Shown: positions 11,501-63,374 of the stretch, one piece after another
Position numbering within the stretch: the first letter of the stretch is position 1
How the letters are laid out: each line of letters starts with the position of its first letter
NCBI GenBank assembly: GCA_963813415.1
Contig: CAWEYW010000008.1
Span: 98,170-162,169 of the forward strand
Length of the DNA: 64,000 bases
Origin: an uncultured beta proteobacterium
GTDB lineage: Bacteria > Pseudomonadota > Gammaproteobacteria > Burkholderiales > Casimicrobiaceae
Direction of reading: 5' to 3'
Made by a program: the position numbers and the translations under genes
Notes under the pieces: model-generated
What the model was told of the DNA's origin: nothing
What the model saw: the letters and a program-made list of their open reading frames with translations, nothing else
Databases searched by the model: none

Positions 11501-11586
11501 GGCGCCGGCGAACCGGCGCCCGCAGCGGGGGTCTGACGGCCGTGCCGAGGCGTGCAGCGCCTGTCGGCATCACGGGGAGAGAACGC

Positions 11587-12678
11587 ATGGATGCGCGGAC
11601 TGGGTCGCTCTGGGAGAATCCCCTCGGCACGGACGGGTTCGAGTTCATCGAATACGCTGCGCCGGACCCCCGGGCGCTCGGCGCGCTGTTCGAGCAGATG
11701 GGTTTCACCGCCATCGCGAAGCATCGCTCGAAGGACGTCCTGCTGTACCGCCAGGGCGAGATCAACTTCATCGTCAACGCCGAGCCGGGAAGCTTCGCAC
11801 AGGCCTTCGCGCGGGTACACGGGCCGTCGATTTGCGCCATGGCCTTCCGGGTCAGGGACGCCGCCATCGCCTATCGCCGGGCCGTGGAGCAGGGCGCCTG
11901 GGGCGTGGAAGCCCATCCGGGGCCGATGGAACTCAGCATCCCGGCCATCAAGGGCATCGGCGACTCGCTGATCTATCTGGTGGATCGTTATCCCGGGGCG
12001 CCAGCCAACGCGGGCAGCCCGGTGTCGATCTACGACATCGATTTCCAGCCCTTGCCGGGTGTCGACCAGCACCCCGTGGGTGCGGGGCTCAAGACCATCG
12101 ACCACCTCACCCACAACGTCCACCGCGGCCGGATGGACGAGTGGGCGAGCTTCTACGAGCGGCTGTTCAACTTCCGCGAGATCCGCTATTTCGACATCGA
12201 GGGGAAGCTGACCGGGTTGCGCAGCAAGGCCATGACGAGCCCCTGCGGCAGGATCCGCATCCCCATCAACGAAAGCGCGGACGACAAGAGCCAGATCCAG
12301 GAATACCTCCTGGCGTATCACGGCGAGGGCATCCAGCACGTGGCACTCGGTACGGACGACATCTACACGACCGTCGAGCGGCTGCGCGCGGCCAGGGTGG
12401 ATTTCCAGGATGCGCCGGACACCTACTACGAACTCCTGGCCGAGCGGCTTCCGGGACACACCGAGGACACCGCCCGCCTCAAGGCCAACCACATCCTGCT
12501 CGACGGGGCGCCGGCCAAGGGCGAGATGCTGCTCCAGATCTTCACCCGGACGCTCATCGGCCCCATCTTTTTCGAGGTCATCCAGCGCAAGGGCAACGAG
12601 GGCTTCGGCGAAGGGAATTTCCGGGCGCTGTTCGAATCGATCGAGCTGGATCAGATCCGGCGCGGCGTCCTGGAATAG
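11587..12678 (+). CDS. hppD: 4-hydroxyphenylpyruvate dioxygenase
   Basis: Trimmed to ATG 11587. [37 protein letters not shown] and [13 protein letters not shown]. Confidence 0.9.
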
Positions 12679-18188: not shown

Positions 18189-18411
18189 GCAGGCCAATCT
18201 AAGCATCGGAGATGCGACAGTCAAGCGCGTCCCGGTGCCGAAGTTGACAGCAACGGCCGCTGACCGTACCTTTGCGCTCGCAGCGCCGATTTGATCCAGG
18301 GGCAACCCTGCAGCTTGCGGGCGCTATACAAGTGCAGCTAAAGCGGTTTCGACCGGAACCCGCTCGGCGGCACGCTGAACGGGTTTTTTGTTTTCCACCG
18401 GGAACCTCGCC

Positions 18412-19470
<1,059 letters not shown>

Positions 19471-19723: not shown

Positions 19724-19822
19724 GCTCTTCTCCTCCCCCCGCAAAGCCGCTTCGACCGTGCCGCCGCGCGCCGGTTCGCGAGGCTCATCGGGAAACGCTG
19801 GCGGCGCCGCGCGGTGCAACCC

Positions 19823-22529
<2,707 letters not shown>

Positions 22530-22653
22530 ATGCGCGGCGCCCTGAGCAACATCGCCCGTCGGGCTGAAGCCTGATCCGCGACAATGGTGGCGCCGCGGCG
22601 CCGCGCCTGACATGCGCGCGGCCGAAGCCTCGGCTACAGGACGGCGTGATGCA

Positions 22654-50128: not shown

Positions 50129-50671
50129 ATGCTGAAAGGCGCTGCCGACCCCCCGCCGCTGCCGCACCCGGAGCTGCTCGCGGCGATTCCGCGCCTGCGC
50201 CGTTACGCGCGCGTGCTGACCGGCGATGGCACGCGTGCCGACGATCTCGTTCAGGACACGCTGGCGAGGGCCTGGGAGAAGCGGCGGCTCTGGCAGGCTG
50301 GCACGGACCTGCGCGCGTGGCTGTTCACGATCATGCACAACGTCTACGTCAACCAGCTCTCGATCGCCCGTCGCGACGCGGCCAACGTGTCGCTCGACAG
50401 CGAGGGCGCGCACGCCGCATGGCAGGTTCCCGTGCGTGCCAACCAGCTCGAGCGCGTGGAGCTGCTCGAGATCATGCAGCAGATGGGCCGACTGCCGCCG
50501 GACCAGCGCGAGGTCCTGTTGCTCGCGGCCGTGGAAGAGATGCAATACGACGAGATCGCAGCCATGCTCGACGTGCCGATGGGCACCGTGATGTCGCGGC
50601 TTTCCCGCGCGCGCGCCAAGCTGCGCCATCTGGTCGACGAACCGTCGTCGGCGCTGCGGGTGGTGCGATGA
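50129..50671 (+). CDS. ECF-type RNA polymerase sigma-70 factor
   Basis: Region 2 (DDLVQDTLARAW..., WLFTIMHNVYVNQ) and region 4 (YDEIAAMLDVPMGTVMSRLSRAR). Confidence 0.9.
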   Translation: MLKGAADPPPLPHPELLAAIPRLRRYARVLTGDGTRADDLVQDTLARAWEKRRLWQAGTDLRAWLFTIMHNVYVNQLSIARRDAANVSLDSEGAHAAWQVPVRANQLERVELLEIMQQMGRLPPDQREVLLLAAVEEMQYDEIAAMLDVPMGTVMSRLSRARAKLRHLVDEPSSALRVVR

Positions 50672-51582: not shown

Positions 51583-52365
51583 ATGCCCGAACCCAAGCTC
51601 ATCACGCTCCGCGGCCGACCCATCGCGGGCGGCCGTCATCCTCTGATCTGCACCCCGCTGGTAGGCACGACCGCGGAAGCCATCGGCGGCGAGCTCGGCG
51701 CCGTCATGCCCAAGCAGCCCGACATCATCGAATGGCGCGTCGACTTCTTTCACGCCATTGCGGACACGGCGGCGGTGCTGGAGACCGCACGGCGCATCAA
51801 GGCCGGCGCCGGTGAGGTGCCGGTGATCTTCACCTGCCGGTCGGTGCGCGAAGGCGGACAGACGACGCCGTGCTCGGACGCGGAGATCGTCGCACTGCTC
51901 GCCGCGGTCGCGGCGGACCGTTGCGTGGATCTCGTCGACTTCGAGATGAGCAATCGCGCCGAGGACGTGCGGCACGTCCGCGAGGTTTCGCGCACGCATG
52001 GCGTCGGACTGATCCTCTCGTATCACAACTTCCAGACCACGCCCGATGCAGCGCAGCTCGCCGCCACGTTCCGGCAGGCCGAAGCACTTGGCGGCGACGT
52101 CGCCAAGGTGGCCGTGATGCCGCGTGGGTTGCACGATGTGCTGACGCTGCTGGAGGCCACGCTGCAGGCGAGCGAGTCCCTGGGGATACCGGTGATGAGC
52201 ATGTCGATGGGCGCCTACGGCTCGCTGTCGCGCATGATCGGCTGGGCGTTCGGCTCGGTGATCACCTTCGCGGTCGGCCAGAGCAGCTCGGCGCCGGGGC
52301 AGATCCCGATCGAGGACCTGCGCACCGCACTCGCCATCGCGCAGCGCGCCGTCAGGGGCGCCTAG
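51583..52365 (+). CDS. aroD: type I 3-dehydroquinate dehydratase
   Basis: DIIEWRVDFF, ILSYHNFQTTP (His), and GGDVAKVAVMP (Schiff-base Lys context). Confidence 0.85.
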   Translation: MPEPKLITLRGRPIAGGRHPLICTPLVGTTAEAIGGELGAVMPKQPDIIEWRVDFFHAIADTAAVLETARRIKAGAGEVPVIFTCRSVREGGQTTPCSDAEIVALLAAVAADRCVDLVDFEMSNRAEDVRHVREVSRTHGVGLILSYHNFQTTPDAAQLAATFRQAEALGGDVAKVAVMPRGLHDVLTLLEATLQASESLGIPVMSMSMGAYGSLSRMIGWAFGSVITFAVGQSSSAPGQIPIEDLRTALAIAQRAVRGA

Positions 52366-52493
52366 GCAAGCGGGCTGCGGCCCGGCGATTGTGCGGTAAT
52401 CGCCCCGTTGGGCGATAATCGGCGCGTGCTCGTCCGTGCCGTCGAACGGGGTCGGTGCGGGCCTTCGCGTCCGTTCTTCATTCGCTGCCCCCG

Positions 52494-53414
52494 ATGCCTG
52501 CCAAGCGCGCCGCCAGGAAAGTCACCCGAACGTCCCCGCCCAAGTCCGGCAAGTCCCGGCGCATCGATGCAGGCTCGGCCCAGCAACGCGGGCGTGACAC
52601 CACCGCCGCGCCCACCGTCGCCAGCGAGATCCAGGCACTCTCGGACGATCCGAACTTCATGACGTCGCTCGCGCGCGGACTCGCCGTGATCGCCGCATTC
52701 ACCGATCGCCGTCGTCGTCCGACCATCGCCGACCTGAGTCGCAAGACCGGCATTCCGCGCGCCGCGGTGCGTCGCTGTCTCTACACGCTGGGGAAGCTCG
52801 GCTATGTCGACGCCGACGCGAACACCTTTTCGTTGCAGCCGAAGATCCTCAACCTCGGCCACGCATATCTCGGGTCCGCATCGCTCGCCGTGACCGCACA
52901 GCCGTTCCTCGATCGGGTCAGCGAAGCGGTCGGCGAGTCGTGCTCGCTTGCCGTGCTCGAGCACGACGACATCCTCTACCTCGCACGCTCGGTCACCTCG
53001 CGCATCCTGTCGGTCAATCTCAACGTGGGGAGCCGCCTGCCCGCGTACTGCACATCGATCGGCCAGGTGATCCTCGCCGAGCTGGACGATGCCGAGCTTG
53101 CGCCGTACATCCGGCGTACGCGGCTGGTCGCCTACACCGACCGCACCGCTGCGTCCGCGCAGCAGTTGAAGCAGGTGCTCGAAGGCGTGCGGCGCAACGG
53201 CTATGCGATCGCCGACCAGGAGATGGAGATCGGGATTCGCTCGATCGCGGTGCCGGTGCGCGATTCGGCGGACGTGGTGATCGCCGGCATCAACGTCCTC
53301 ACCCAAGGCCTGCGCATGACGGCGCGCGAAATGAAGGCACGCATCCTCCCGCACCTCTACAGCGCTGCAGCCGATCTGGGCGCCACGCTCGCCCGCGGCG
53401 GCGCTGTTCGTTAA
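52494..53414 (+). CDS. IclR-family transcriptional regulator (PcaR/PcaU-like)
   Basis: Trimmed to ATG 52494. Basic N-terminal tail, FMTSLARGLAVIAAF...IADLSRKTGIPRAAVRRCLYTL HTH, and IclR effector domain. Confidence 0.85.
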   Translation: MPAKRAARKVTRTSPPKSGKSRRIDAGSAQQRGRDTTAAPTVASEIQALSDDPNFMTSLARGLAVIAAFTDRRRRPTIADLSRKTGIPRAAVRRCLYTLGKLGYVDADANTFSLQPKILNLGHAYLGSASLAVTAQPFLDRVSEAVGESCSLAVLEHDDILYLARSVTSRILSVNLNVGSRLPAYCTSIGQVILAELDDAELAPYIRRTRLVAYTDRTAASAQQLKQVLEGVRRNGYAIADQEMEIGIRSIAVPVRDSADVVIAGINVLTQGLRMTAREMKARILPHLYSAAADLGATLARGGAVR

Positions 53415-53663
53415 TCGCACAACCGTGCGGTGTTCGCCCTTGACCCCTCTTGGGGCGGCGCGCAAAGTTCCTTCCACGCAAGCGCACCGATAGCGCGCGC
53501 GGCACCGCAGACGCGGTTGCCGCGCCCGCCAGGGATCAAGCGGTACGCGTGTCTTGCTCGCATCCGATAGGCTTGCACGGCCGCATCGGAAACGCGGACT
53601 GCGACAGGGCGCGCCAGCCCGGCAGCCGCGGCATCGCGACCGTCAATGCTGCAGGAGGAACGC

Positions 53664-55112
53664 ATGGCCACCGTCGAACCCCGGAAAGGCATCACCGACG
53701 AGCAACAGCAGGAGCTCGACCAGGTGTTCGAGCGCGCGAGGAAGGCGCTCGCGATCATCGAAACGTACGATCAGGCGCGCGTGGATCGCCTGTGCCAGGC
53801 GGTCGCCTGGGCCGTGGCGAACAAGAAGACCTTCACGCGCCTGGTGGATATGGGCATTGCGGAAAGCGGGCTCGGCGATCCGGTGAGCCGCATGGGCAAG
53901 CGCATGAAGATCCGCGGCGTGCTGCGCGACGCCCTGCGCCAGAAAAGCGTCGGCGTCATCGAGGAGCTGCCCGAAAAAGGCATCGTGAAGTACGGGAAGC
54001 CGGCAGGGATCATCGCGTGCATCGTGCCGACCACGAACCCCGACCTCACACCCGCCGGCAACGCGATCTACGCCATCAAGGCGCGCGATGTGGTCATCTA
54101 TTCACCGCATCCGCGGTCGAAGAGGACGTCATTCGAGACCGTGCGCCTGATGCGCGAAGCGCTCGAGCGTGAAGGCGCGCCGGCCGACATCCTGCAGTGC
54201 CTGACGAAGGTCAACATCCCGATGTCGCAGGCGCTGATGGCACGCGCCGACCTGATCATTGCCACCGGCGGCCAGCCGATGGTGCGCGCAGCGTACAGCT
54301 CCGGCACGCCCGCCTACGGCGTCGGCGCGGGAAACTCGACGATGATCATCGACGAGACCGCCAACATCGAGGAAGCCGCGCGCAACACACGGCTCTCGAA
54401 GACGTCGGACTTCGGCTCCGGCTGCTCCGCCGACGGCAACCTCATCATCGAGACCGGCATCTTCGATCGCCTGCTCGCTCAACTTCAGAAGGAAGGCGGA
54501 CATCTCGCCTCCGACGCGGAGAAGGCCGCGCTGCGTCGGGTGATGTGGGACGACGAGAACCATCGTCTCCCGGACACCGTGGCGATCGCGCCGCAGCAAC
54601 TCGCCCGGGCGGCGGGATTCACCATTCCGGAAGACCGCAAGTTCATCATCGTGCACGGCGACGGCATCGGCAAGGAGCACCCGTACTCCGGCGAGAAACT
54701 GACGACCTTGCTCGCCGTGTACCGGTACGACGGCTTCGATCAGGCGCTGGCGATGATGCGTGCGATCTACGAGGTCGGCGGCAAGGGCCACTCGTGCGGC
54801 ATCTACTCGTTCGACCAGGATCACATCCATCGCCTTGCCATGGCCGCTCCCGTCAGCCGGATCATGGTGCGGCAGCCGCAATCGAAAGCGAATGCCGGCG
54901 CCTTCAACAACGGCATGCCGATGACCTCGAGTCTCGGCTGCGGCACGTGGGGCGGCAACATCGTCTCGGAGAACGTGCATCTCAAGCATTACCTGAACAC
55001 CACTTGGGTCTCCGTGCCGATCAAGGAGGACAAGCCCTCGGACGAGGAGCTCTTCGGCGACTTCTACGACCCGGCGCTGGAGATGGACGCCGCGGATCTC
55101 ATCACCACCTGA
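53664..55112 (+). CDS. aldehyde dehydrogenase, CoA-acylating type
   Basis: Trimmed to ATG 53664 (AGGAGGAACGC upstream). IVPTTNPDLTP and SKTSDFGSGCSADGN (catalytic Cys region), resembling EutE/AdhE-N/SauS-type enzymes. Confidence 0.8.
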   Translation: MATVEPRKGITDEQQQELDQVFERARKALAIIETYDQARVDRLCQAVAWAVANKKTFTRLVDMGIAESGLGDPVSRMGKRMKIRGVLRDALRQKSVGVIEELPEKGIVKYGKPAGIIACIVPTTNPDLTPAGNAIYAIKARDVVIYSPHPRSKRTSFETVRLMREALEREGAPADILQCLTKVNIPMSQALMARADLIIATGGQPMVRAAYSSGTPAYGVGAGNSTMIIDETANIEEAARNTRLSKTSDFGSGCSADGNLIIETGIFDRLLAQLQKEGGHLASDAEKAALRRVMWDDENHRLPDTVAIAPQQLARAAGFTIPEDRKFIIVHGDGIGKEHPYSGEKLTTLLAVYRYDGFDQALAMMRAIYEVGGKGHSCGIYSFDQDHIHRLAMAAPVSRIMVRQPQSKANAGAFNNGMPMTSSLGCGTWGGNIVSENVHLKHYLNTTWVSVPIKEDKPSDEELFGDFYDPALEMDAADLITT

Positions 55113-55182
55113 TCGCGGGTGTGCAACTGCTTCGGCTTCAGGCGAGGCGCGACCTCGCTTCGCGCCAACCAACCTGACATCC

Positions 55183-56040
55183 ATGGCCACCAAGACCCCC
55201 GAAGAGCTTCTCGCCGACTGCAGCGCCTGGTGGGACACCTCGATCATCGACATTCATCCGGGCGAGATCGCCATCCGCGGCTACGCGATCGAGGACCTGA
55301 TCGGACGCGTCAGCTTTCCGCAGATGATCTGGCTGATGCTGCGCGGCGAGCTGCCGACGGTGCAACAGGCGCGGCTTCTCGAGGCCGCCCTGGTCCCGGG
55401 TGTCGATCACGGGCCACACGCGCCGTCGATTGCGATCGCACGGATGGCGGTCACCTGCGGCCTGCCGGTGAATGGCGCCATGGCATCGTCCATCAACGTG
55501 CTGGACGACATCCACGGCGGCGCCGGCCAGCAATGCATGGAGCTCTATCGCGCGATCGACGCCGATGCGGGAGCCGACGGCAATCTGGTGCAGTCGGCGA
55601 CACGCGCCATCGAGCGCGAGCGCGCGTCCGGCGAGAAGATCGTGCCCGGCTTCGGCCATCGCTTCCACCCGATCGATCCCCGCACGGCGCCGCTGTTCGA
55701 GCTCGTCGAGCGAGCGCGGCAGGAAGGCGTCGTGTCCGGCCGTTTCGCGAGCATCGGCCGCGCCGTGGAAGAAGCGCTGCGCGGTATCAAGGGCAGGCAC
55801 ATCCCGATGAACATCGACGGCATCACCGCGGTGATCTTCTGCGAGCTCGGCTTCGAGCCGGAGCTCGGCCGCGGGATCTTCATCCTCTCGCGCGCGGTCG
55901 GCATTCTCGCGCATGCCTGGGAGCAGAAGCAGCGCGGCCGCCGGATCATGGGGCCGATGCCGCGGGAGATTCCCTATCGCTACAGCGGACCGCCACGGCG
56001 CGAGTTGCCCGACGAGTTCCGCAAACCGGCAGCCATGTAG
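55183..56040 (+). CDS. short citrate-synthase-fold protein (citryl-CoA lyase-like)
   Basis: 285 aa. VDHGPHAPS, DDIHGGAG and GFGHRFH, corresponding to the citrate synthase catalytic His contexts. Confidence 0.8.
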   Translation: MATKTPEELLADCSAWWDTSIIDIHPGEIAIRGYAIEDLIGRVSFPQMIWLMLRGELPTVQQARLLEAALVPGVDHGPHAPSIAIARMAVTCGLPVNGAMASSINVLDDIHGGAGQQCMELYRAIDADAGADGNLVQSATRAIERERASGEKIVPGFGHRFHPIDPRTAPLFELVERARQEGVVSGRFASIGRAVEEALRGIKGRHIPMNIDGITAVIFCELGFEPELGRGIFILSRAVGILAHAWEQKQRGRRIMGPMPREIPYRYSGPPRRELPDEFRKPAAM

Positions 56041-56088
56041 ACAAGGCGTCGGCCGCGTGACGGCACGAAAGTTCTGCAGGAGGAGCGC

Positions 56089-57867
56089 ATGAAAAAAGAC
56101 CTGATCTCCCACCAGCTCGTGAAGTACCTGGAAGGTCGCGGCGTCGAGCACATCTTCGGGTTGTGCGGCCACACCAACATCGCGGTCCTGGCGGCGCTGT
56201 CGAAGAGCACCATCAAGTTCATCAACGTGCGGCACGAGCAGATTGCGGCACACGCCGCGGACGGCTATGCGCGCGCCAGGAAGCAGACCGCCGTCGTGCT
56301 GTCGCATCTCGGCCCGGGCCTCACTAATGCCGCTACCGGGGTCGCCAATGCGGCACTCGATTCCATCCCGATGGTGGTGATCGCCGGCGATGTGCCGACG
56401 CACTATCACGGCAAGCATCCCCATCAGGAAGTGAACCTGCATTCGGATGCCTCCCAGTTCGAGATCTATCGCCCGTTCGTGAAACGTGCGTGGCGCGTGG
56501 ACCAGCCGCATCTCTTTCCGGAGATCATCGAAAAGGCGTTTGCCCTCGCCGAGAGCGGCCGCCCCGGGCCGGTGCTGGTGGACGTGCCCATGGACATCTT
56601 CTCGAAGGAGATCGACGTCGCGCTGTTCGAGCGGCTGCGCCACAACACCAAGCACGTGCACAAGCCGTCGATCGACGACAAAACCGCCGAGGAGATCGTG
56701 CGCGCATTGCTGGCGGCGAAGCATCCCTTGCTCTACGTCGGCGGCGGCGTGCTCCTCGCCGATGCGGCCGCGGAATTGCGGGCGCTGGTGGATCATCTCA
56801 GCCTGCCGGTGGCGCACACCCTGATGGGCAAAGGCGCGCTGCCCGACGACCATCCGCTGATCCTCGGCATGACGGGCTTCTGGGGTACGAAGTTCATCAA
56901 CGAGCAATGCCAGGCCGCCGACTGGGTGCTGGCGCTCGGCACGCGCTTCTCCGAAGCGGACATGAGCTCGTGGGAGCCGGAGTACACGTTCAACTTTCCG
57001 CCCGCGAAGCTGATCCAGATCGACATCGACCCGGCGGAGATCGGCCGCAATTTCCCCGTCGAGATCGGCGCGGTGGCCGATCTCAAGGAAGCCCTCGTCG
57101 TGCTGAACCGCGTGGCGCGGCGTCTCGCGCCCGAGGGGGTGAAGCGGCCGGAGCTCGTCCGGAAGATGGCGGCGGAGCGGGCGTCGTTCGTCGCCGGCAA
57201 TCGCAAGCACATGCAGAGCGACGCGTTTCCGATGCGGCCTGAACGAATTCTCGCCGACGTGCGCGAAGCGCTGCCGCGCAATGCGCTGATCACGACCGAC
57301 GTGGGCTGGAACAAGAACGGCGTCGGCCAGCAGTTTCCGATCTACGAGCCGGGCACGATCTTCACGCCGGGGGGATACGCGACGATGGGCTTCGGCGCGC
57401 CGGCCGCGGTGGGTGCGAAGATCGCCTGTCCCGATCGCGTCGTGGTGGCGCTCGTCGGGGACGGCGGCTTCGGCCAGAACCCGGCGATGCTGGCGACCGC
57501 GTTCGACGAGAACGTCGCGGTGGTGTGGGTGATCATGAACAACTGCGCGTTCGGCACCATCGCCGGACTCGAGAAGGCGCACTTCGACACGACGTTCGGC
57601 ACGGTGTTCGAGAAGAACGGCAAGCCGTACTCGCCCGATTACGCCGCGATCGCCAGGGCGTACGGCGTGGACGGCGTGAAGATCACTTCGGCCGACGCCT
57701 TCAGGCCGGCGCTCGAGGCGGCGATCGCGTCGAACCGGCCGTGCGTGATCGACGTGATGATGCAGAACGAGCCGGTGCCCACCGCGGGGCACTGGAACAT
57801 CATGGACATCTACTCGCCGGGCCAGAAGAAGAGTCACCTGAGCACTGCAGCGATCCCGGTCGACTGA
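56089..57867 (+). CDS. thiamine diphosphate-dependent enzyme (acetolactate synthase / IolD / Xsc superfamily)
   Basis: GGAGGAGCGC upstream of ATG. Pyr domain (GVEHIFGLCGHTNI...GPGLTNAATGVANA) and PP domain (GDGGFGQNPAMLATA...VVWVIMNN). Confidence 0.85.
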   Translation: MKKDLISHQLVKYLEGRGVEHIFGLCGHTNIAVLAALSKSTIKFINVRHEQIAAHAADGYARARKQTAVVLSHLGPGLTNAATGVANAALDSIPMVVIAGDVPTHYHGKHPHQEVNLHSDASQFEIYRPFVKRAWRVDQPHLFPEIIEKAFALAESGRPGPVLVDVPMDIFSKEIDVALFERLRHNTKHVHKPSIDDKTAEEIVRALLAAKHPLLYVGGGVLLADAAAELRALVDHLSLPVAHTLMGKGALPDDHPLILGMTGFWGTKFINEQCQAADWVLALGTRFSEADMSSWEPEYTFNFPPAKLIQIDIDPAEIGRNFPVEIGAVADLKEALVVLNRVARRLAPEGVKRPELVRKMAAERASFVAGNRKHMQSDAFPMRPERILADVREALPRNALITTDVGWNKNGVGQQFPIYEPGTIFTPGGYATMGFGAPAAVGAKIACPDRVVVALVGDGGFGQNPAMLATAFDENVAVVWVIMNNCAFGTIAGLEKAHFDTTFGTVFEKNGKPYSPDYAAIARAYGVDGVKITSADAFRPALEAAIASNRPCVIDVMMQNEPVPTAGHWNIMDIYSPGQKKSHLSTAAIPVD

Positions 57868-57965
57868 CTTACTGTAAAGGGGTCGCAGGAGAGGCTGCAT
57901 GTATCGGGAAAGCTCGTTTGCGGGATCGATCAGCGACGCGCAGACGTTCATTCAAAGGAGGGTTC

Positions 57966-58823
57966 GTGAACCACCACTACTCGCTCGCGCACCTCACGGT
58001 GCTGACGCTCACGCCCCCCGAGGTCGTGGAGGCCGCTGCGCGCGCGGGTTATGCGTACGCCAGTCTGCGCATGACACGCGTCACCCCGGCCGAGCCGCTT
58101 TATGATCTGGCGCGCGACCGCGTGCTCATGCGCGAGACGAAGGCGCGGATGGCGGCAACGGGCGTGCGCATTCACGATGCGGAACTCTTCCGCATGGACG
58201 CGTCGCTCGAGCCCGAGCAGTTCAAGGCGGAGCTCGATGCCACGGCCGAGCTCGGCGCTCACCACGTCATCTGCCAGCTGCCGGATCCCGATCGCGAGCG
58301 GGCCACCGATCGGTTTGCGCGGCTCTGTGATCTCGCGAAGCCACTCGGCATCTTCGCCAGCCTCGAGTTTCCGCACTGGACCGAGACCGGGACGCTCGCG
58401 GAGGCCGCACGCGTGGTGCGCGCGGTGCACAAGGACAACGCGGGCATCCTCATCGACATGCTGCACATGGGACGCTCCGACTCGAGCGTCGAGGACCTCG
58501 CGAAGCTCCCGCGTGAGTGGTTCCGTTTCGCACATGTGTGCGATGCCGAGGCGCGCTGCCCGGCGACGATGGAAGGCATCATCCGGACTGCGCGTGACGA
58601 GCGTCAGTTCCCAGGCGAGGGCACGATCGACGTCAAGGGCATACTGGCCGCCATGCCGGCCGACATCCCCTACTCGTTGGAGATTCCCCGCGCCGTGTTG
58701 ACGGCAGCCGTCGGCCCGTACGAGCTCGCGCGGCTCGCAGTGCGTGCCTGTCGCGCGCACCTCGATGGCGAGGCATGGCAGCGCGATGCGCGCGATGCCT
58801 CCGGCTTCGCGACGGCAGCTTGA
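57966..58823 (+). CDS. xylose isomerase-like TIM-barrel protein (sugar phosphate isomerase/epimerase; dehydratase candidate)
   Basis: GTG 57966 preceded by AAAGGAGGG, in frame within track ORF 57525..58823. Has ...ELGAHHVICQL..., ASLEFPHW and LIDMLHM. Confidence 0.7.
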   Translation: MNHHYSLAHLTVLTLTPPEVVEAAARAGYAYASLRMTRVTPAEPLYDLARDRVLMRETKARMAATGVRIHDAELFRMDASLEPEQFKAELDATAELGAHHVICQLPDPDRERATDRFARLCDLAKPLGIFASLEFPHWTETGTLAEAARVVRAVHKDNAGILIDMLHMGRSDSSVEDLAKLPREWFRFAHVCDAEARCPATMEGIIRTARDERQFPGEGTIDVKGILAAMPADIPYSLEIPRAVLTAAVGPYELARLAVRACRAHLDGEAWQRDARDASGFATAA

Positions 58824-58832
58824 GAGCTCCCC

Positions 58833-59666
58833 ATGATTGACGGACGGACCCTGGTGATCGCCCATCTCGGGTATCCGACCGAGACGTTCAAGGCACCGCT
58901 CATCTATAACCCGTGGTTCGAGAAGACTGGCATCAACGCCGTCGTCGTGCCGATGGGCGTGCACGCGCAGGATTACCCGCAGGTGCTGAAGGCACTGTCA
59001 AGGCTCACGAACATCCGCGGCGCACTCGTGACGATGCCGCACAAGGTGACCACCGTCGGGCTGCTCGACGAAACGAGCACCGCGGTCCGCGTTGCCGGAT
59101 CGTGCAACGCGGTGCTGGTGCGGCCGGACGGTTCGCTGCTCGGCGACATGTTCGACGGCACCGGCTTCACCCGCGGAATCAAGCGCAAGGGCCTGGTCCT
59201 TGCCGGTGCGTCGTGCCTCGTGGTCGGCGCCGGTGGAGTCGGATCGGCCATTGCGGCCTCGCTTGCCGAGGAACGGGCGGCTTCGTTGACAGTATTCGAC
59301 ACGGACAGTGCTGCCGCGGAAGGTCTGGTGCGACGGCTCCGCGAACATTTTCCGAACACACGCGCCAGCGTTGGAACCAGTGACCCGGCGGGGTATGACC
59401 TCGTGGTCAACGCGACGCCGCTCGGAATGCAGGCAACCGATCCGCTGCCGTTCGACGTGGCGCGGCTCGCGCGCTCCACGTTCGTCGGCGAAGTGGTCAT
59501 GAAGCAGGAGATGACGCCGCTGCTGCAGGCGGCGCGGGAGCGCGGGTGCCGTTACCAGGTCGGCACCGACATGCTTTTCGAAATGATCCCCGCGTATCTC
59601 GAATTTTTCGGATTCGGCACGACGACGCCGGACGAGCTGCGATCCGTCGCGCGCATCAAGTACTGA
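58833..59666 (+). CDS. shikimate/quinate dehydrogenase family protein
   Basis: GALVTMPHKV (catalytic Lys), GAGGVGSAIA dinucleotide motif, and NATPLGM. Confidence 0.85.
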   Translation: MIDGRTLVIAHLGYPTETFKAPLIYNPWFEKTGINAVVVPMGVHAQDYPQVLKALSRLTNIRGALVTMPHKVTTVGLLDETSTAVRVAGSCNAVLVRPDGSLLGDMFDGTGFTRGIKRKGLVLAGASCLVVGAGGVGSAIAASLAEERAASLTVFDTDSAAAEGLVRRLREHFPNTRASVGTSDPAGYDLVVNATPLGMQATDPLPFDVARLARSTFVGEVVMKQEMTPLLQAARERGCRYQVGTDMLFEMIPAYLEFFGFGTTTPDELRSVARIKY

Positions 59667-59779
59667 CGGGACCAGCCGCCGTGTTGCCTGGATTTGGCAG
59701 GTCTGTTAAATTTACTTGCGATTCCGCCAATTCAAGGCTTGCGATGGCACTGCAGCTTTTGCCCGACCGCGCGACGAAC

Positions 59780-60406
59780 ATGCGCAAGCGCAAGGCGCCG
59801 GAGGCCAATCGCGCGCTGATCCTCGACGCGGCCATCGCCGAATTCGCCTCGCGCGGTTTCAAAGGCGCGAGCATGGACGCGATCGCCGCGCGAACCGAGA
59901 CCACGCGCGCGCTCATCAACTACTACTTCGGGAGCAAAGAGCGGCTGTACCTCGCCGTTCTGGAGCGGGTCTACCGGGAGATCCGGGAGGCCGAGACGAA
60001 GCTCGACCTCGGAGAGTTGCCGCCGGTCGAAGCCATCCGCCGGATCGTCGAGTTCACCTACGACTACTACGTCGAGCACGAGGATTTCGTGCGCCTCGTC
60101 GTGGCGGAAAACCAGGCCAAGGGTCGGCACATGAAGCGCGTTCCAGCGCTGCGGTCGGTGAATCGGCCGATCATCGACATGCTTGCCGACGTGATTGCGC
60201 GCGGGCAGGCGGATGGTGTGTTCCGGCCCGGCGTCGATCCGATCGACGTTCACATGGCCGTCGCTGCCTTGGGAATGTTCAACGTGACGAATCAGTACAC
60301 CTTCGGCGCCCTCTTCCAGCGGTCCATGGGCGCCAAGGGCGACGTGCCGGGTCGCCGCCGCATGGTGGCCGACATGATCCTGCGCTGGCTCGGGCACGCG
60401 TCTTAG
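59780..60406 (+). CDS. TetR/AcrR-family transcriptional regulator
   Basis: ILDAAIAEFASRGFKGASMDAIAARTETTRALINYYF HTH. Start at ATG 59780 (alternative 59744). Confidence 0.85.
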   Translation: MRKRKAPEANRALILDAAIAEFASRGFKGASMDAIAARTETTRALINYYFGSKERLYLAVLERVYREIREAETKLDLGELPPVEAIRRIVEFTYDYYVEHEDFVRLVVAENQAKGRHMKRVPALRSVNRPIIDMLADVIARGQADGVFRPGVDPIDVHMAVAALGMFNVTNQYTFGALFQRSMGAKGDVPGRRRMVADMILRWLGHAS

Positions 60407-60446
60407 CGCTGGCCCGGTAATGCGAATCTTCACCGAGGAGGTCACC

Positions 60447-61436
60447 ATGGAATTCAAGTTGCACCGTCGTACCCTGCTCAAGGCCGGCGCCGCGCTGGCC
60501 GCTTCGCAGTCGTTGTCCTTGTGGGCCCAGGACAAGCCCAACCTTCGCTTCGCCGCCGTGTTCTCGGACAAGGACATCCGTGCAGACATGATCCGCATGC
60601 TCGCCAAGGACATCGAGGGCGATTTCAAGCTCGAGCCGTTCTATGGCGGCACGCTGTTCAAGCAGGGCACCGAGCTCGTGGCCCTGCAGCGCGACAACCT
60701 CGAGCTCGGCAATGTCGCGCCGCAGGACATCTCCAAGCAGCTGCCGGCATGGTCGGTCCTGACGTCCGCCTACACGTTCCGCGACGCCCACCATGTGCTG
60801 GCGTTCTTCGCCAGCGACCTTGGCGCGCTGATGAAGAAGCAGGCCGAGGATCAGCTGCACATCAAGATCCTCGCGCCGACGTTCTATGGCACCCGTCAGG
60901 TAGGATTGAAGCCGAAGAAAAAGATCAACACGCCCGCGGACATGGCAGGCATCAAGCTCAGGATGCCACCGGGGGATGCATGGCAGCTTCTCGGCCGCTC
61001 GATCGGCGCGAATCCCACGCCGATGGCGTATGCCGAGACCTACACAGGCCTTCAGACCGGCGCCATCGACGGGCAGGACAACCCGCTGCCCAACGTGCAG
61101 AACATGAAGTTCTACGAGGTGATGTCGCAGATCGTGCTGACCTCGCACCTGGTCGCCTTCGACGTGCTGTCGATGAACCTCAAGACGTGGAACACCATGG
61201 GTGCGGCCAAGCAGAAGAGCTTCCAGGCGGCGGTCGACAAGGCGATCGCCTGGAGCACGGCGGAGCACCTCAAGCGCGAAGGGGAGCTCGCAGAGGGCTT
61301 CAAGAAGCAGGGGCTCGACATCTACACGCCGGACATCAATGCATTCCGTACCTATGCCCAGAAGGTGTACCTCGCCTCGGACGAGGCGAAGTCATGGGCG
61401 CCGGGGATTCTCGACAAGATCGCCGCGGTGAAGTAA
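60447..61436 (+). CDS. TRAP transporter substrate-binding protein (DctP family) with Tat-type signal
   Basis: Trimmed to ATG 60447 (GAGGAGG upstream). HRRTLLKAGAALAA twin-arginine leader; DctP-like body (ALQTGAIDGQDNP). Confidence 0.9.
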   Translation: MEFKLHRRTLLKAGAALAASQSLSLWAQDKPNLRFAAVFSDKDIRADMIRMLAKDIEGDFKLEPFYGGTLFKQGTELVALQRDNLELGNVAPQDISKQLPAWSVLTSAYTFRDAHHVLAFFASDLGALMKKQAEDQLHIKILAPTFYGTRQVGLKPKKKINTPADMAGIKLRMPPGDAWQLLGRSIGANPTPMAYAETYTGLQTGAIDGQDNPLPNVQNMKFYEVMSQIVLTSHLVAFDVLSMNLKTWNTMGAAKQKSFQAAVDKAIAWSTAEHLKREGELAEGFKKQGLDIYTPDINAFRTYAQKVYLASDEAKSWAPGILDKIAAVK

Positions 61437-61560
61437 CGAATGCGGAAGGTCGCGGGCCCCTCATGCGGCACGCGACCGCCGCGGCGCCGGACGTCATCGC
61501 GTTCGGTGCGTGAAGCGTCCGCCGGCGTCGACGATCGGCGTTCACGGGGATGGGGAGAGC

Positions 61561-62076
61561 ATGACTTCATTGGTTCTCAAGGTGGCCGGCTGGGTGCAGC
61601 GCCGCTCCGAGAACGTGATTGCCGCGCTGCTCGGCATCATGTTCGTCGCCTTCGTGTTGCAGATCGTCTTCCGGTACTTCCTCAATCTGCCGACCGGCTG
61701 GTCCACCGAGACCGTGGTCATCTGCTGGTTGTGGCTGGTGCTCTGGGGCACGGCCCTCGCACTGAAGGAGAAGGACGAGATCCGCTTCGACATCTTCACC
61801 TCGGTCGCCGGACCGCGCACGCGTCGCGTGATGGCGGGCATCGTCTCGATCGTGACGGTCGCCCTTTACAGCCTGTCCCTCCCGGCGACGTACAAGTACG
61901 TGGCGTTCATGAAGGTCGAGCACTCGTCGTACCTCGACATCCGCCTCGACTGGCTGTACTCGATCTACGTCATCTTCGTCGTCGCCACCATCGTGCGCTA
62001 TCTGTGGTTGCTGTGGGAGGCCTTGCGCGGTGAGTTGCCCCCCGAAGAGTCGACCGACGGAGGCCGGACGCCATGA
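61561..62076 (+). CDS. TRAP transporter small permease (DctQ family)
   Basis: Trimmed to ATG 61561. Four TM segments and HIRFD-like EIRFDIF. Confidence 0.8.
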   Translation: MTSLVLKVAGWVQRRSENVIAALLGIMFVAFVLQIVFRYFLNLPTGWSTETVVICWLWLVLWGTALALKEKDEIRFDIFTSVAGPRTRRVMAGIVSIVTVALYSLSLPATYKYVAFMKVEHSSYLDIRLDWLYSIYVIFVVATIVRYLWLLWEALRGELPPEESTDGGRTP

Positions 62077-63374
62077 GCCTGCCGAGCCCCTTCGTCCTCT
62101 CGCTCTTCACCATCGTCGCGCTTAGCCTGCTGGGTCTCCCGATCGGCCTCGCGATGATCGGCGGATCGGTGCTCTACCTTCTTACCGCGGGCCTCGACGT
62201 GGGCACCGCGGCCGAGCAGATCCTCAACGGCATGATGACCAGCTATCTGCTGCTGGCGATCCCGCTGTTCATCCTCGCCGCGGAGTTCATGAACGCGGGC
62301 AGCATCATGGACAGGCTCGTGCGATTCTGTAACGCACTGGTCGGTCGCTTCCGCGGCGGACTGGCCCTGGTCAACGTCGCGCAGGCCATCGTCTTTTCCA
62401 GCATGTCGGGGTCCGCGCTGGCCGATGCCGCGGGTGCGGGCAAGCTCATGCAATCGCTGATGACGCGCGAGGGCAAGTACCCGCGCGCGTTTGCCGCGGC
62501 GCTGACGGCTGTCGCGGCCACGATCGGTCCGATCATCCCGCCATCGATCCCGCTGGTGGTCTATTCGCTGATCTCGGATACCTCCGTGGGCTACCTGTTC
62601 CTCGGCGGCGTGATCCCCGGATTGCTGATCGGCGCCGTGCAGATGGGCTTGATCGTCGCCGTGGGCAAGCGGCGCAATTTCCCGGTGGAAGCGCGTGTGC
62701 CGCTGCGCGAGATGCCTCGCATCACGAAGGAAGCATTTCCTGCGCTCCTGATGCCGATCATCCTTTTCACCTGCATGTACGGTGGCATCACCACGCCCAC
62801 CGAAGCTGCGGCCCTGGCGGCAGCCTACGCGCTGCTCATCGCCGGCGGACTTTACCGAAGCATCGGCCCGACGCACGTCTACCACTCGCTTCTGACCAGC
62901 GCGCGCACCACGGTCTCCATCGGCATGCTGATCGCGGGTGCGATGGCGTTCAACTATGTGATCACCGTCGAAAACATCCCGAAGGCGGTGAGCGCGATCC
63001 TGACTGCCACCAGTCTGTCGCAGTGGGGCTTCCTGCTGCTCGTCAACGTCATTCTGCTCGTGCTTGGCTGCTTTCTCGAGGGCACGACGATCATTCTCGT
63101 CATCCTGCCCGTCCTGCTGCCGACCGCGAGGGCGCTCGGCGTCGACCCGGTGCATTTCGGTGTCATGGCAGTGACCAACATCATGTTCGGCCTCGTCACG
63201 CCCCCGTATGGCCTGCTGCTTTTCATGATGACGAAGATCGCGAACGTACCACTGCGCGACATCGTGCGCGAGGTGATGCCCTTTCTCGGCGTCATGCTCA
63301 TCGCCCTGATGCTGATTACCTACATCCCGGCCTTCACGCTCTTCCTGCCGCGCCTGTTCGGCTACACGGGCTGA
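62073..63374 (+). CDS. TRAP transporter large permease (DctM family)
   Basis: ATGA overlap with dctQ-like gene. 433 aa polytopic protein with typical DctM segments (SGSALADAAG, PPSIPLVVY). Confidence 0.9.
   Translation: MSLPSPFVLSLFTIVALSLLGLPIGLAMIGGSVLYLLTAGLDVGTAAEQILNGMMTSYLLLAIPLFILAAEFMNAGSIMDRLVRFCNALVGRFRGGLALVNVAQAIVFSSMSGSALADAAGAGKLMQSLMTREGKYPRAFAAALTAVAATIGPIIPPSIPLVVYSLISDTSVGYLFLGGVIPGLLIGAVQMGLIVAVGKRRNFPVEARVPLREMPRITKEAFPALLMPIILFTCMYGGITTPTEAAALAAAYALLIAGGLYRSIGPTHVYHSLLTSARTTVSIGMLIAGAMAFNYVITVENIPKAVSAILTATSLSQWGFLLLVNVILLVLGCFLEGTTIILVILPVLLPTARALGVDPVHFGVMAVTNIMFGLVTPPYGLLLFMMTKIANVPLRDIVREVMPFLGVMLIALMLITYIPAFTLFLPRLFGYTG

Follow-up and report, generated by a model that had tools for sequence, protein, structure and literature searches.

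We analyzed a cluster of 11 genes in a 64-kb window of DNA (the whole stretch of 64,000 nucleotides) from an uncultured beta proteobacterium of the Casimicrobiaceae. The cluster combines a shikimate/quinate dehydrogenase (SDH)-family oxidoreductase and a type I 3-dehydroquinate dehydratase (dehydroquinase) with a xylose-isomerase-like TIM barrel, a thiamine diphosphate (ThDP)-dependent enzyme, a CoA-acylating aldehyde dehydrogenase (ALDH), an acyl-CoA lyase with the citrate synthase fold, a TRAP transporter, and two regulators. Judging from comparisons with other genomes, it is a real, conserved, and widespread catabolic unit. It very likely encodes a ThDP-dependent, non-aromatizing route that starts from dehydroquinate or dehydroshikimate and ends in an acyl-CoA lyase. 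More specifically, the cluster probably encodes the uptake of quinate and shikimate and their oxygen-independent, non-aromatizing catabolism via 3-dehydroquinate (DHQ) to acetyl-CoA and 2-oxoglutarate. In its most ambitious form, which we advance tentatively, the proposal is that these genes specify a widespread and undescribed five-enzyme pathway, independent of oxygen, from quinate (or from shikimate, via dehydroquinase in reverse) to acetyl-CoA and 2-oxoglutarate, with no aromatic intermediate.

We scanned one genome per species for orthologs of the ThDP enzyme and found them, at 64-84% identity, in the genomes of at least 80 species from about eight phyla. The hosts are Beta-, Gamma-, and Alphaproteobacteria, Desulfobacterota, Bacilli, Negativicutes (Sporomusa and Pelosinus), Actinomycetota, Gemmatimonadota, and Planctomycetota, and they include strict anaerobes. 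Cultured hosts include Aromatoleum tolulyticum ATCC 51758, A. diolicum 22Lin, Azoarcus sp. KH32C, Betaproteobacteria bacterium GR16-43, Brevibacillus sp. TJ4, Halobacillus andaensis, and Ruegeria atlantica. (The same scan found at least 558 pattern-matched relatives, and a metagenomic database has over 7,900 homologs at E ≤ 1e-100, the best 120 of which are all at least 81% identical.) Our counts cover the 65 ThDP loci with 6 kb or more of sequence on each side of the ThDP gene. These loci were searched by tblastn, with best-hit resolution, using the window's proteins and further families from an unbiased clustering of the neighbors.

The TIM barrel accompanies the ThDP gene in 52 of the 65 loci, some of which lack an aroD or SDH gene. 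Some kind of dehydrogenase is present in 47 loci (SDH-like in 17, MDR in 18, GFO in 10, and PQQ in 9). For the conversion of an aldehyde to an acyl-CoA, 41 loci have only an acylating ALDH, 16 have only a family III CoA-transferase, 3 have both, and 5 have neither; a classical ALDH is also present in 16 of the 19 loci with the CoA-transferase. Similarly, 30 loci have only a lyase of the citryl-CoA-lyase type and 26 have only one of the 3-hydroxy-3-methylglutaryl-CoA (HMG-CoA)-lyase type, while none have both and 9 have neither. In 39 loci, there is a dehydroquinase no more than about 10 kb from the ThDP gene (19 loci have type I and 22 have type II, including 2 with both types). One or more hydroaromatic markers are present in 49 loci; we counted as markers aroD, aroQ, any SDH-like gene with an identity of 45% or more, and the split QuiC-like pair that is described below. 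The transporter near the ThDP gene is a TRAP system in 38 loci and a TTT system in 11.

A previous reading of this DNA from the sequence alone (hereafter, the sequence-only reading) had noticed that quinate/shikimate-type enzymes were mixed with ring-opening genes like those for inositol catabolism, and had suggested orthology and HMM searches along with a check of the cluster's conservation in other genomes. Those searches show that the two kinds of genes are conserved together and that the core recurs across about eight phyla. The conserved module comprises, insofar as functions can be assigned from sequence, a dehydrogenase, the TIM barrel, and the ThDP enzyme, together with the means to convert an aldehyde to an acyl-CoA and a retro-Claisen lyase for acyl-CoA. 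Because this core recurs in dozens of unrelated genomes, the arrangement is far beyond chance. Furthermore, the six enzymes in the window match the recurrent set of six functions one-to-one, with two of the steps filled by unrelated families, which rules out an accidental juxtaposition. The alternative lyases and the alternative families for the aldehyde-to-acyl-CoA step are instances of non-orthologous displacement within one pathway, with exclusion that is complete for the lyases and nearly complete for the ALDH.

The enzymes are also encoded in compact operons in Sporomusa, Pelosinus, Desulfosarcinaceae, and Desulfocapsaceae, which supports the oxygen independence that the sequence-only reading had suggested. 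For example, the Sporomusa locus (L023) has the order aroD / LacI / MDR-ADH, DctP, DctQ, DctM, HMGL, ThDP, TIM, ALDH, with no further enzyme gene in between, and the operons of Pelosinus (L042) and of a metagenome-assembled genome (MAG) from the Bacillaceae (L032) are equivalent. The compact operons of the anaerobes encode only a dehydrogenase, the TIM barrel, the ThDP enzyme, the ALDH, a lyase, and a TRAP transporter, with or without aroD.

Could the cluster instead be two unrelated units that happen to adjoin? One would be a classical module for converting quinate and shikimate to protocatechuate (the SDH-family enzyme, aroD, the TIM barrel as a dehydroshikimate dehydratase, the TRAP transporter, and the PcaU-like IclR regulator, with pca genes elsewhere in the genome), and the other would be an independent ALDH-lyase-ThDP operon for some other acid. 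The IclR regulator is of the PcaR/PcaU/PobR type, the TIM barrel's neighbors include Lmo2234 and the dehydroshikimate dehydratase QuiC1, 231-249 nt separate the IclR and ALDH genes, and 62-64% identical homologs of the lyase occur in contexts without a ThDP gene. But the TIM barrel follows the ThDP gene in most loci, even where aroD or SDH is missing, and 25 of the 65 loci encode a separate split QuiC-like pair in addition. Also, in the window, the TIM-barrel and SDH genes are 9 nt apart and lie right behind the ThDP gene, and the full set is found as single operons in strict anaerobes. (Strict anaerobes are not expected to cleave protocatechuate by oxygenases.) We consider the two-unit explanation improbable.

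Under our proposal, DctP, which would be exported by the twin-arginine translocation (Tat) system, and DctQM would import quinate and shikimate. The SDH-family enzyme would oxidize quinate to DHQ and shikimate to 3-dehydroshikimate. The type I dehydroquinase, which catalyzes a reversible reaction, would interconvert 3-dehydroshikimate and DHQ, and its hydration of 3-dehydroshikimate would admit shikimate to the pathway. The TIM barrel would strip the C5 hydroxyl from DHQ via a C3/C4 enediolate, with the same mechanism as IolE and the dehydroshikimate dehydratases. The product of this non-aromatizing dehydration would be a 3,4-dione, 1-hydroxy-3,4-dioxocyclohexane-1-carboxylate, and not protocatechuate, because C1 would still be sp3. 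The ThDP enzyme would attack C3 of this cyclic 1,2-dione and cleave the C3-C4 bond hydrolytically, as IolD and cyclohexane-1,2-dione hydrolase (CDH) do, to give an omega-oxo acid, homocitrate semialdehyde (OHC-CH2-C(OH)(COO-)-CH2-CH2-COO-). The acylating ALDH would oxidize the ring-opened semialdehyde to homocitryl-CoA, and the lyase would cleave this 3-hydroxy-3-carboxyacyl-CoA to acetyl-CoA and a 2-oxoacid, 2-oxoglutarate. In the variants with a CoA-transferase, free homocitrate would be an intermediate. The net reaction would be quinate + CoA + 2 NAD+ -> acetyl-CoA + 2-oxoglutarate + 2 NADH; by our own calculation, mass and redox balance close. The steps from the TIM barrel through the lyase are predictions, and the putative roles of the dehydrogenase, the dehydroquinase, and the transporter rest on family membership and context.

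The conserved genes constrain the chemistry. The product of the ThDP enzyme must be an aldehyde, because the next conserved function is always the oxidation of an aldehyde (either directly to a CoA thioester or else to an acid, with a CoA-transferase). That two unrelated and mutually exclusive families of retro-Claisen lyase are used implies a 3-hydroxy-3-substituted acyl-CoA with a methylene at C2. We infer that, among the hydroaromatic intermediates, only DHQ offers the required unit, which is a citrate-like C1(OH)(COOH) between two CH2 groups, and that the proposed route is the shortest one that uses each conserved enzyme once. It requires no oxygen and no further genes, so it fits the compact operons, and no further pathway gene is conserved in the clusters. 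The sequence-only reading had expected acyl-CoA end products. This expectation is supported and sharpened by the alternative, unrelated families that fill the ALDH/CoA-transferase and lyase steps.

We considered three other routes and rejected them. A reaction of the 2-hydroxyacyl-CoA-lyase type on quinoyl-CoA is at odds with most clusters, which lack a CoA ligase or transferase. If dehydroshikimate were dehydrated, then the product would aromatize. Finally, oxidation to a dione, in place of dehydration, would give 4-hydroxy-2-oxoglutarate, which requires an aldolase, and this is absent.

In the full-text literature, we found no description of such a route (although it might have been published beyond the searchable journals) and no paper on homocitryl-CoA, and NCBIfam (release 20) has no model that names the cluster's proteins specifically. 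This agrees with the sequence-only reading, which knew of no pathway with this composition. To our knowledge, no lyase for homocitryl-CoA has been described, and we know of no counterpart for finishing a pathway with the citrate-lyase-like cleavage of a ring-derived tricarboxylate thioester. What is new here is the catabolic route; the enzyme families and the types of reactions were already known.

We now turn to the individual proteins. The lyase passes NCBIfam's citryl-CoA lyase model (NF004864; 429 bits, cutoff 261), and its best match in PDB is the citryl-CoA lyase 6hxp (149 bits). When aligned with 6hxp and citrate synthase, it has the conserved motifs HGGA, GFGHR, DPR, NID, and SRxxGxxAH, and it keeps citrate synthase's catalytic His/His/Asp and oxaloacetate-binding Arg motifs. 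The context argues that its substrate is homocitryl-CoA, the C7-derived analog, rather than (3S)-citryl-CoA. The HMG-CoA-lyase-type substitute scores 303 bits with NF004283, which is above the cutoff of 246, and the next-best model for it is the homocitrate synthase NifV. The ThDP-less homologs of the lyase were seen in Methylobacterium nodulans (plasmid pMNOD01, L002) and Azospirillum argentinense (plasmid p4, L003). Their two contexts comprise a DASS transporter, CoA-transferase, lyase, and amidohydrolase, and an ALDH, lyase, CoA-transferase, FAD oxidoreductase, and ABC transporter. The lyase family probably serves several uncharacterized polycarboxylate pathways.

Given the lyase's match to the citryl-CoA lyase model, the ThDP enzyme might be a 2-oxoacid decarboxylase. 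It would convert a 4-hydroxy-4-carboxy-2-oxoacid (for example, 4-carboxy-4-hydroxy-2-oxoadipate from the meta-cleavage of protocatechuate) to citrate semialdehyde, which would be converted to citryl-CoA and then to acetyl-CoA and oxaloacetate. Many relatives of the ThDP enzyme are decarboxylases, and the count of carbon atoms (C7) fits. Nevertheless, this scheme is extremely improbable. The 40 other annotated open reading frames (ORFs) of the window that are supported by GC content at the third codon position (GC3) include no lig or pca ring-cleavage genes, as the sequence-only reading had reported for pca, and neither do the 40 commonest families of neighboring genes, 12 of which were read in sequence. 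The cluster is also present in strict anaerobes, the scheme would leave the TIM barrel and the dehydroquinase without a role, and it would require several oxidations for which the genes are absent.

The ThDP enzyme, whose gene is the signature of the cluster, has all three TPP domains and, as read from the sequence, keeps the HEQ region with the catalytic glutamate, but it scores below the cutoff of every named NCBIfam model. IolD is absent from the best 25 of its 53 NCBIfam matches; those 25 are acetolactate synthase, glyoxylate carboligase (Gcl), and Xsc-type models, all with at least 304 bits and all below their cutoffs (for the Xsc-type model, 323 bits with a cutoff of 620). Its best match in PDB is a plant acetohydroxyacid synthase (274 bits), and it is also close to glyoxylate carboligase (236 bits) and 2-hydroxyacyl-CoA lyases (about 206 bits); CDH is more distant (168 bits). 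For the ALDH, the best NCBIfam models are SauS (NF047625; 475 bits), AdhE (355 bits), and a EutE-type model (331 bits). Because 475 bits is below SauS's cutoff of 600, the ALDH is not SauS itself. In related loci, orthologs of the ALDH (58-89% identity) adjoin the ThDP gene.

We place the true start of the TIM barrel at a GTG (position 57966) behind an AAGGAGG ribosome-binding site. The family has 25 invariant columns, including E35, E65, E126, D156, D185, E231, and four arginines (numbered from 57990). When we compared a profile of 18 TIM-barrel orthologs to PDB, the matches were Lmo2234 (73 bits; it may be the dehydratase QuiC2), IolI (72 bits), QuiC1 (46 bits), and AsbF (26.6 bits). An AlphaFold2 model that was built with 40 homologs has a pLDDT of 86.7, and its neighbors according to Foldseek are IolI (the top match), QuiC1, 7vpf, and Lmo2234 (TM 0.76). 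At E ≤ 1e-3, the NCBIfam matches of the TIM barrel are QuiC (28 bits), IolO (26 bits), and psicose epimerase only, so the IolE model is not among them; the cutoff for QuiC is 1200 bits, so the protein does not belong to the QuiC/QsuB/AsbF family. Judging from the profile and the predicted structure, the neighbors of the TIM-barrel family are enzymes whose substrates are keto-cyclitols and dehydroshikimate. In Listeria, lmo2234 adjoins lmo2233 (QuiR2), and it is lmo2233 that lies divergently upstream of the shikimate-induced qui2 operon (bioRxiv 10.1101/2025.04.08.647683).

The aromatizing dehydratase is a different protein. A split QuiC-like pair consists of a protein similar to 4-hydroxyphenylpyruvate dioxygenase and a second TIM barrel. 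With the two halves of the QuiC model, the members of this pair score 131 and 156 bits, as compared to 28 bits for the window's TIM barrel, which implies that the latter is a different enzyme; the two often coexist. The pair (at L001:5825-7528, in L005, L006, L008, L012-L018, and in others) is usually divergent from the ALDH gene and next to the IclR gene. There is no such pair in the visible part of the window. The split pair may give its hosts a parallel, aromatizing branch.

The dehydroquinase scores 217 bits for PF01487 and 199 bits for TIGR01093, whose cutoff is 139, so it belongs to the type I 3-dehydroquinate dehydratases. Type I and type II dehydroquinases have unrelated folds, and the use of both near the ThDP gene is a further pattern of displacement and ties the pathway to the pair of dehydroquinate and dehydroshikimate. 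The SDH-family protein, for which we propose the oxidation of both quinate and shikimate, is of a non-AroE subclass. Its best NCBIfam model gives 150 bits, which is below the cutoff, and its best match in PDB (158 bits) is 4k28, an uncharacterized structure from the SDH family. Its orthologs in the 17 loci are 60-74% identical, and MDR, GFO, or PQQ dehydrogenases stand in elsewhere. The pyrroloquinoline quinone (PQQ)-dependent dehydrogenase (about 880-900 amino acids and soluble-looking) is in clusters L004, L010, L037, L038, L064, L069, L071, L072, and L076, and most of these nine lack an SDH-like gene. This enzyme may oxidize the substrate in the periplasm, before uptake.

Several observations weigh against the proposed pathway. 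Most broadly, all of its substrates and intermediates are deduced from sequences and genome comparisons. Neither the IolE nor the QuiC family model accepts the TIM barrel, and as its top match by Foldseek, IolI, is an isomerase, we can only guess that it acts as a dehydratase and not as an isomerase. The proposed dione could aromatize spontaneously. The ThDP enzyme is nearer to acetohydroxyacid synthases than to CDH, the model that the lyase passes is named for citryl-CoA and not for homocitryl-CoA, and 9 of the 65 loci have neither type of lyase. In the SDH-family protein, the catalytic Lys and Asp are retained, but AroE's carboxylate-binding serines and Gln are missing (SxS is replaced by F-K-A, N-T-D by M-F-D, and Gln by Met), and its substrate may thus be something other than quinate or shikimate. 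The dehydrogenases of some loci resemble IolG or IolM, and this could be a sign of other cyclitols. Finally, 26 of the 65 loci lack a dehydroquinase within about 10 kb, and if quinate were the sole substrate, then dehydroquinase would not be needed at all, so its frequency forces us to assume that it acts in the hydration direction on shikimate.

Some of these observations would be explained if the same architecture acted on another cyclitol or carboxylate, or cleaved another bond, so that the products were not acetyl-CoA and 2-oxoglutarate. For example, DHQ might undergo an acyloin-type cleavage to a dialdehyde, with the TIM barrel as an aldose-ketose isomerase. The match to the isomerase IolI (although Lmo2234 leads by profile score), the replacement of the SDH-family gene by IolG-like (GFO) and IolM-like (MDR) dehydrogenases in many loci, the non-canonical substrate residues in the SDH-family protein, and the loci with no nearby dehydroquinase all favor this. 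However, an enzyme of the citrate-synthase fold or the HMG-CoA-lyase type needs a CH2-C(OH)(R)- unit, which is missing from substrates of the inositol type, and the acyl-CoA from 5-deoxyglucuronate would bear a 2-hydroxyl. The dialdehyde route would need a second aldehyde dehydrogenase and further enzymes, which are absent from the compact operons. Also, two unrelated families of dehydroquinase are enriched beside the ThDP gene, and orthologs of the TRAP transporter travel with classical quinate genes. Overall, we consider a different substrate or a different cleavage to be rather unlikely, and we prefer the route through DHQ and homocitryl-CoA.

The link between the transporter and classical quinate genes is as follows. 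All three TRAP subunits are present: DctP (PF03480, 182 bits), DctQ (PF04290, 66 bits), and DctM (PF06808, 360 bits; TIGR00786, 394 bits with a cutoff of 268). The leader of DctP, KLHRRTLLKAGAALAA...LWA/QD, is of the twin-arginine type. DctP is 66% identical to the DctP on plasmid pTAD1 of Chelatococcus daeguensis, where the gene order is TetR / DctPQM - type II dehydroquinase - QuiC-like fusion, and the window's TetR is 42% identical to the TetR of that TRAP cluster. Similarly, pT173c of Ensifer canadensis has TetR, GntR / DctPQM - aroQ. That relatives of DctP and TetR lie beside classical aroQ/QuiC genes implies that the TetR-TRAP half is a module for hydroaromatic uptake that also serves classical clusters. 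These clusters, in which TetR-DctPQM appears alone beside aroQ/QuiC or aroQ, bear out the sequence-only reading's suggestion that a catabolic module and a transport module had been fused. By these relationships, the ligand of DctP is likely to be quinate, shikimate, or a close relative. The best match of DctP in PDB is 4pf6 (252 bits), followed by the sialic-acid-binding SiaP proteins (about 120 bits). The ligand of 4pf6, which has no part in our argument, is presumably KDO. If 4pf6 does contain KDO, then the nearest ligands would be 3-deoxy-2-ulosonic acids, whose pyranose C2(OH)(COOH)-CH2 mimics C1-C2 of quinate.

The TetR protein (PF17938, 148 bits, and PF00440) has 69-81% identical orthologs in L006, L008, L018, and L025, and it is likely to be the regulator of the transport module. 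The IclR protein passes TIGR02431 (310 bits, cutoff 285), and 50-54% identical IclR genes flank the orthologous betaproteobacterial clusters. In our proposal, the PcaU-like IclR would regulate the catabolic part and TetR would regulate the transport part.

How does the proposed pathway compare to known systems? It resembles myo-inositol catabolism in Bacillus subtilis (IolG, IolE, IolD, and IolA) in its order of ketone formation, TIM-barrel dehydration to a 1,2-dione, hydrolytic ThDP-dependent opening to an aldehyde-acid, and a CoA thioester at the end. However, no protein in the window is orthologous to those enzymes. IolI, QuiC1, and Lmo2234 are the closest to the TIM barrel, acetohydroxyacid synthases are the closest to the ThDP enzyme, and the ALDH belongs to the EutE/AdhE type instead of the IolA type. 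The TIM barrel falls outside the IolE family and the ThDP enzyme outside the IolD family; the resemblance is functional at most. The window also lacks IolG (GFO), the kinase IolC, and the aldolase IolJ, and its pathway ends with a retro-Claisen lyase, which exploits a tertiary alcohol that inositol does not have.

Classical catabolism of quinate and shikimate (QuiA/QsuD, QuiB/QsuC, QuiC/QsuB/AsbF, and then pca) shares the proposed entry by a dehydrogenase and a dehydroquinase, the TRAP ortholog that the classical clusters of Chelatococcus and Ensifer have in common with the window, and a PcaU-type IclR, which is also the regulator of the pca-qui operon of Acinetobacter. Unlike those clusters, the window lacks a QuiC-type dehydratase and pca genes and adds the ThDP enzyme, ALDH, and lyase; the proposed branch point is dehydroquinate instead of dehydroshikimate; and strict anaerobes are among the hosts of the cluster.

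The CDH of Azoarcus sp. 22Lin (now Aromatoleum diolicum; 2pgn) belongs to the same ThDP superfamily, converts a cyclic 1,2-dione to an omega-oxo acid, and is from an anaerobic degrader, but at 168 bits (versus 274 for the plant synthase) it is not the closest relative of the window's enzyme. A. diolicum 22Lin also has a 74% identical ortholog of the window's ThDP enzyme, which is distinct from CDH and lies in its own cluster (L026), with a split QuiC-like pair, CoA-transferase, lyase, ThDP, SDH, and aroD. As for the lyase, the citryl-CoA lyase of Hydrogenobacter (6hxp), citrate synthase, and the DRE-TIM enzymes HMG-CoA lyase and homocitrate synthase likewise perform (retro-)Claisen reactions on 3-hydroxy-3-substituted acyl-CoAs with the release of acetyl-CoA, whereas the context of the window's lyase is catabolic and linked to hydroaromatics, not to the reductive tricarboxylic acid (TCA) cycle or to the metabolism of leucine or ketones. 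Lastly, two enzymes of sulfoacetate degradation in Cupriavidus necator, SauS and Xsc, are among the closest named NCBIfam families to the ALDH and the ThDP enzyme, and both act on short anionic aldehydes. But the scores are below the cutoffs (600 and 620), the cluster has no genes related to sulfonates, such as those for a CoA ligase, Pta, or a sulfite exporter, and its context is hydroaromatic.

The layout of the cluster is given in Table 1. ORF calls, GC3, and searches of Pfam and NCBIfam confirm that there are 11 co-directional genes from the families that the sequence-only reading assigned. The third-position GC of these genes is 0.81-0.91. The range of gaps in the sequence-only reading, from a 4-bp overlap to 249 bp, also agrees with our recomputed values, which are, in order, 89-128, 231-249, 70, 48, 98, 9, 77-113, 13-40, and 73 nt, followed by the 4-nt overlap of dctQ and dctM.

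Table 1. The genes of the cluster, with positions in the 64-kb window
Gene product	Position	Strand	Family models and alternative starts
AroD-like type I 3-dehydroquinate dehydratase	51583..52365	+	PF01487, TIGR01093
IclR regulator, PcaR/PcaU/PobR subfamily	52455..53414	+	TIGR02431; start GTG 52455 or ATG 52494
CoA-acylating ALDH, EutE/AdhE N-terminal type	53646..55112	+	NF047625 best; alternative start ATG 53664
Citrate-synthase-fold acyl-CoA lyase ("citryl-CoA lyase" family)	55183..56040	+	NF004864
ThDP-dependent enzyme	56089..57867	+	TPP_enzyme_N/M/C domains
Xylose-isomerase-like TIM barrel	57966..58823	+	PF01261; start GTG 57966
SDH-family oxidoreductase (shikimate/quinate dehydrogenase), non-AroE subclass	58833..59666	+	PF08501
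TetR regulator (TetR_C_29)	59744..60406	+	PF17938, PF00440; alternative start ATG 59780
DctP, TRAP solute-binding protein	60420..61436	+	PF03480; alternative start 60447
DctQ, TRAP small membrane subunit	61510..62076	+	PF04290; start possibly slightly downstream
DctM, TRAP large membrane subunit	62073..63374	+	PF06808, TIGR00786

The upstream neighbors (MgtE, a lipoprotein, and an extracytoplasmic function (ECF) sigma factor) are unrelated to the cluster, and on the 3' side of dctM, no ORF was assigned from 63375 to about 63800. In this 68% GC DNA, scans for promoters and terminators gave as many hits as expected from shuffled sequence, so they are uninformative about transcription units; there is a single promoter-like site immediately 5' of aroD. 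A search for inverted-repeat operators found only weak GC-rich pairs and one 12-nt pair, CGGTAATCGCCC / GGGCGATAATCG, with a 4-nt spacer, at 52394-52421, between the stop of aroD and the start of the IclR gene. This repeat may serve as an operator or as a weak terminator.

The ECF sigma factor, at 50129-50671, has a PhyR-like sigma2 domain and immediately precedes the cluster. The roughly 800 nt behind it (to 51558) contain no ORF that could be assigned by Pfam and possibly encode an anti-sigma factor. At 11542-12678, 40 kb from the cluster, the window encodes a full-length 4-hydroxyphenylpyruvate dioxygenase (Glyoxalase_5 and Glyoxalase domains), which is probably for ordinary tyrosine catabolism. 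Between 18388 and 22567, domains of methionine synthase (MetH) are in ORFs in different frames: the S-methyltransferase at 18388-19470, an ORF at 19814-22567, and the activation domain at 21465-22529. A split metH could account for this, and so could a frameshift in the assembly of the MAG. The closest relatives of the window are soil Betaproteobacteria and MAGs from the Casimicrobiaceae.

Of the alicyclic acids that reach soil, litter, and the gut from plants, quinate and shikimate rank with the most abundant. As far as we know, the only routes with known genes aromatize these compounds to protocatechuate, whose cleavage normally needs oxygen. The anaerobic fermentation of quinate and shikimate was reportedly described by Brune and Schink in the early 1990s, and we know of no genes that have been assigned to it since. 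If our proposal is correct, then it would account for the use of hydroaromatic acids from plants by fermenting, denitrifying, and sulfate-reducing bacteria, by way of a short and redox-simple route from a C7 plant acid into the TCA cycle.

The proposal would also imply four new enzymatic activities: a non-aromatizing 3-dehydroquinate 5-dehydratase, a ThDP-dependent 1-hydroxy-3,4-dioxocyclohexanecarboxylate hydrolase, an acylating homocitrate-semialdehyde dehydrogenase, and a homocitryl-CoA lyase, which would have arisen twice, once with the citrate-synthase fold and once with the DRE-TIM fold. The two lyase folds, the acylating ALDH versus the classical ALDH with a CoA-transferase, and the type I versus type II dehydroquinases would be examples of non-orthologous displacement. 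The pathway could serve for engineering the conversion of quinate and shikimate into products derived from 2-oxoglutarate. And it would give a function to a family of ThDP enzymes that has thousands of metagenomic members, which are now labeled as "acetolactate synthase" or "thiamine pyrophosphate-binding protein."

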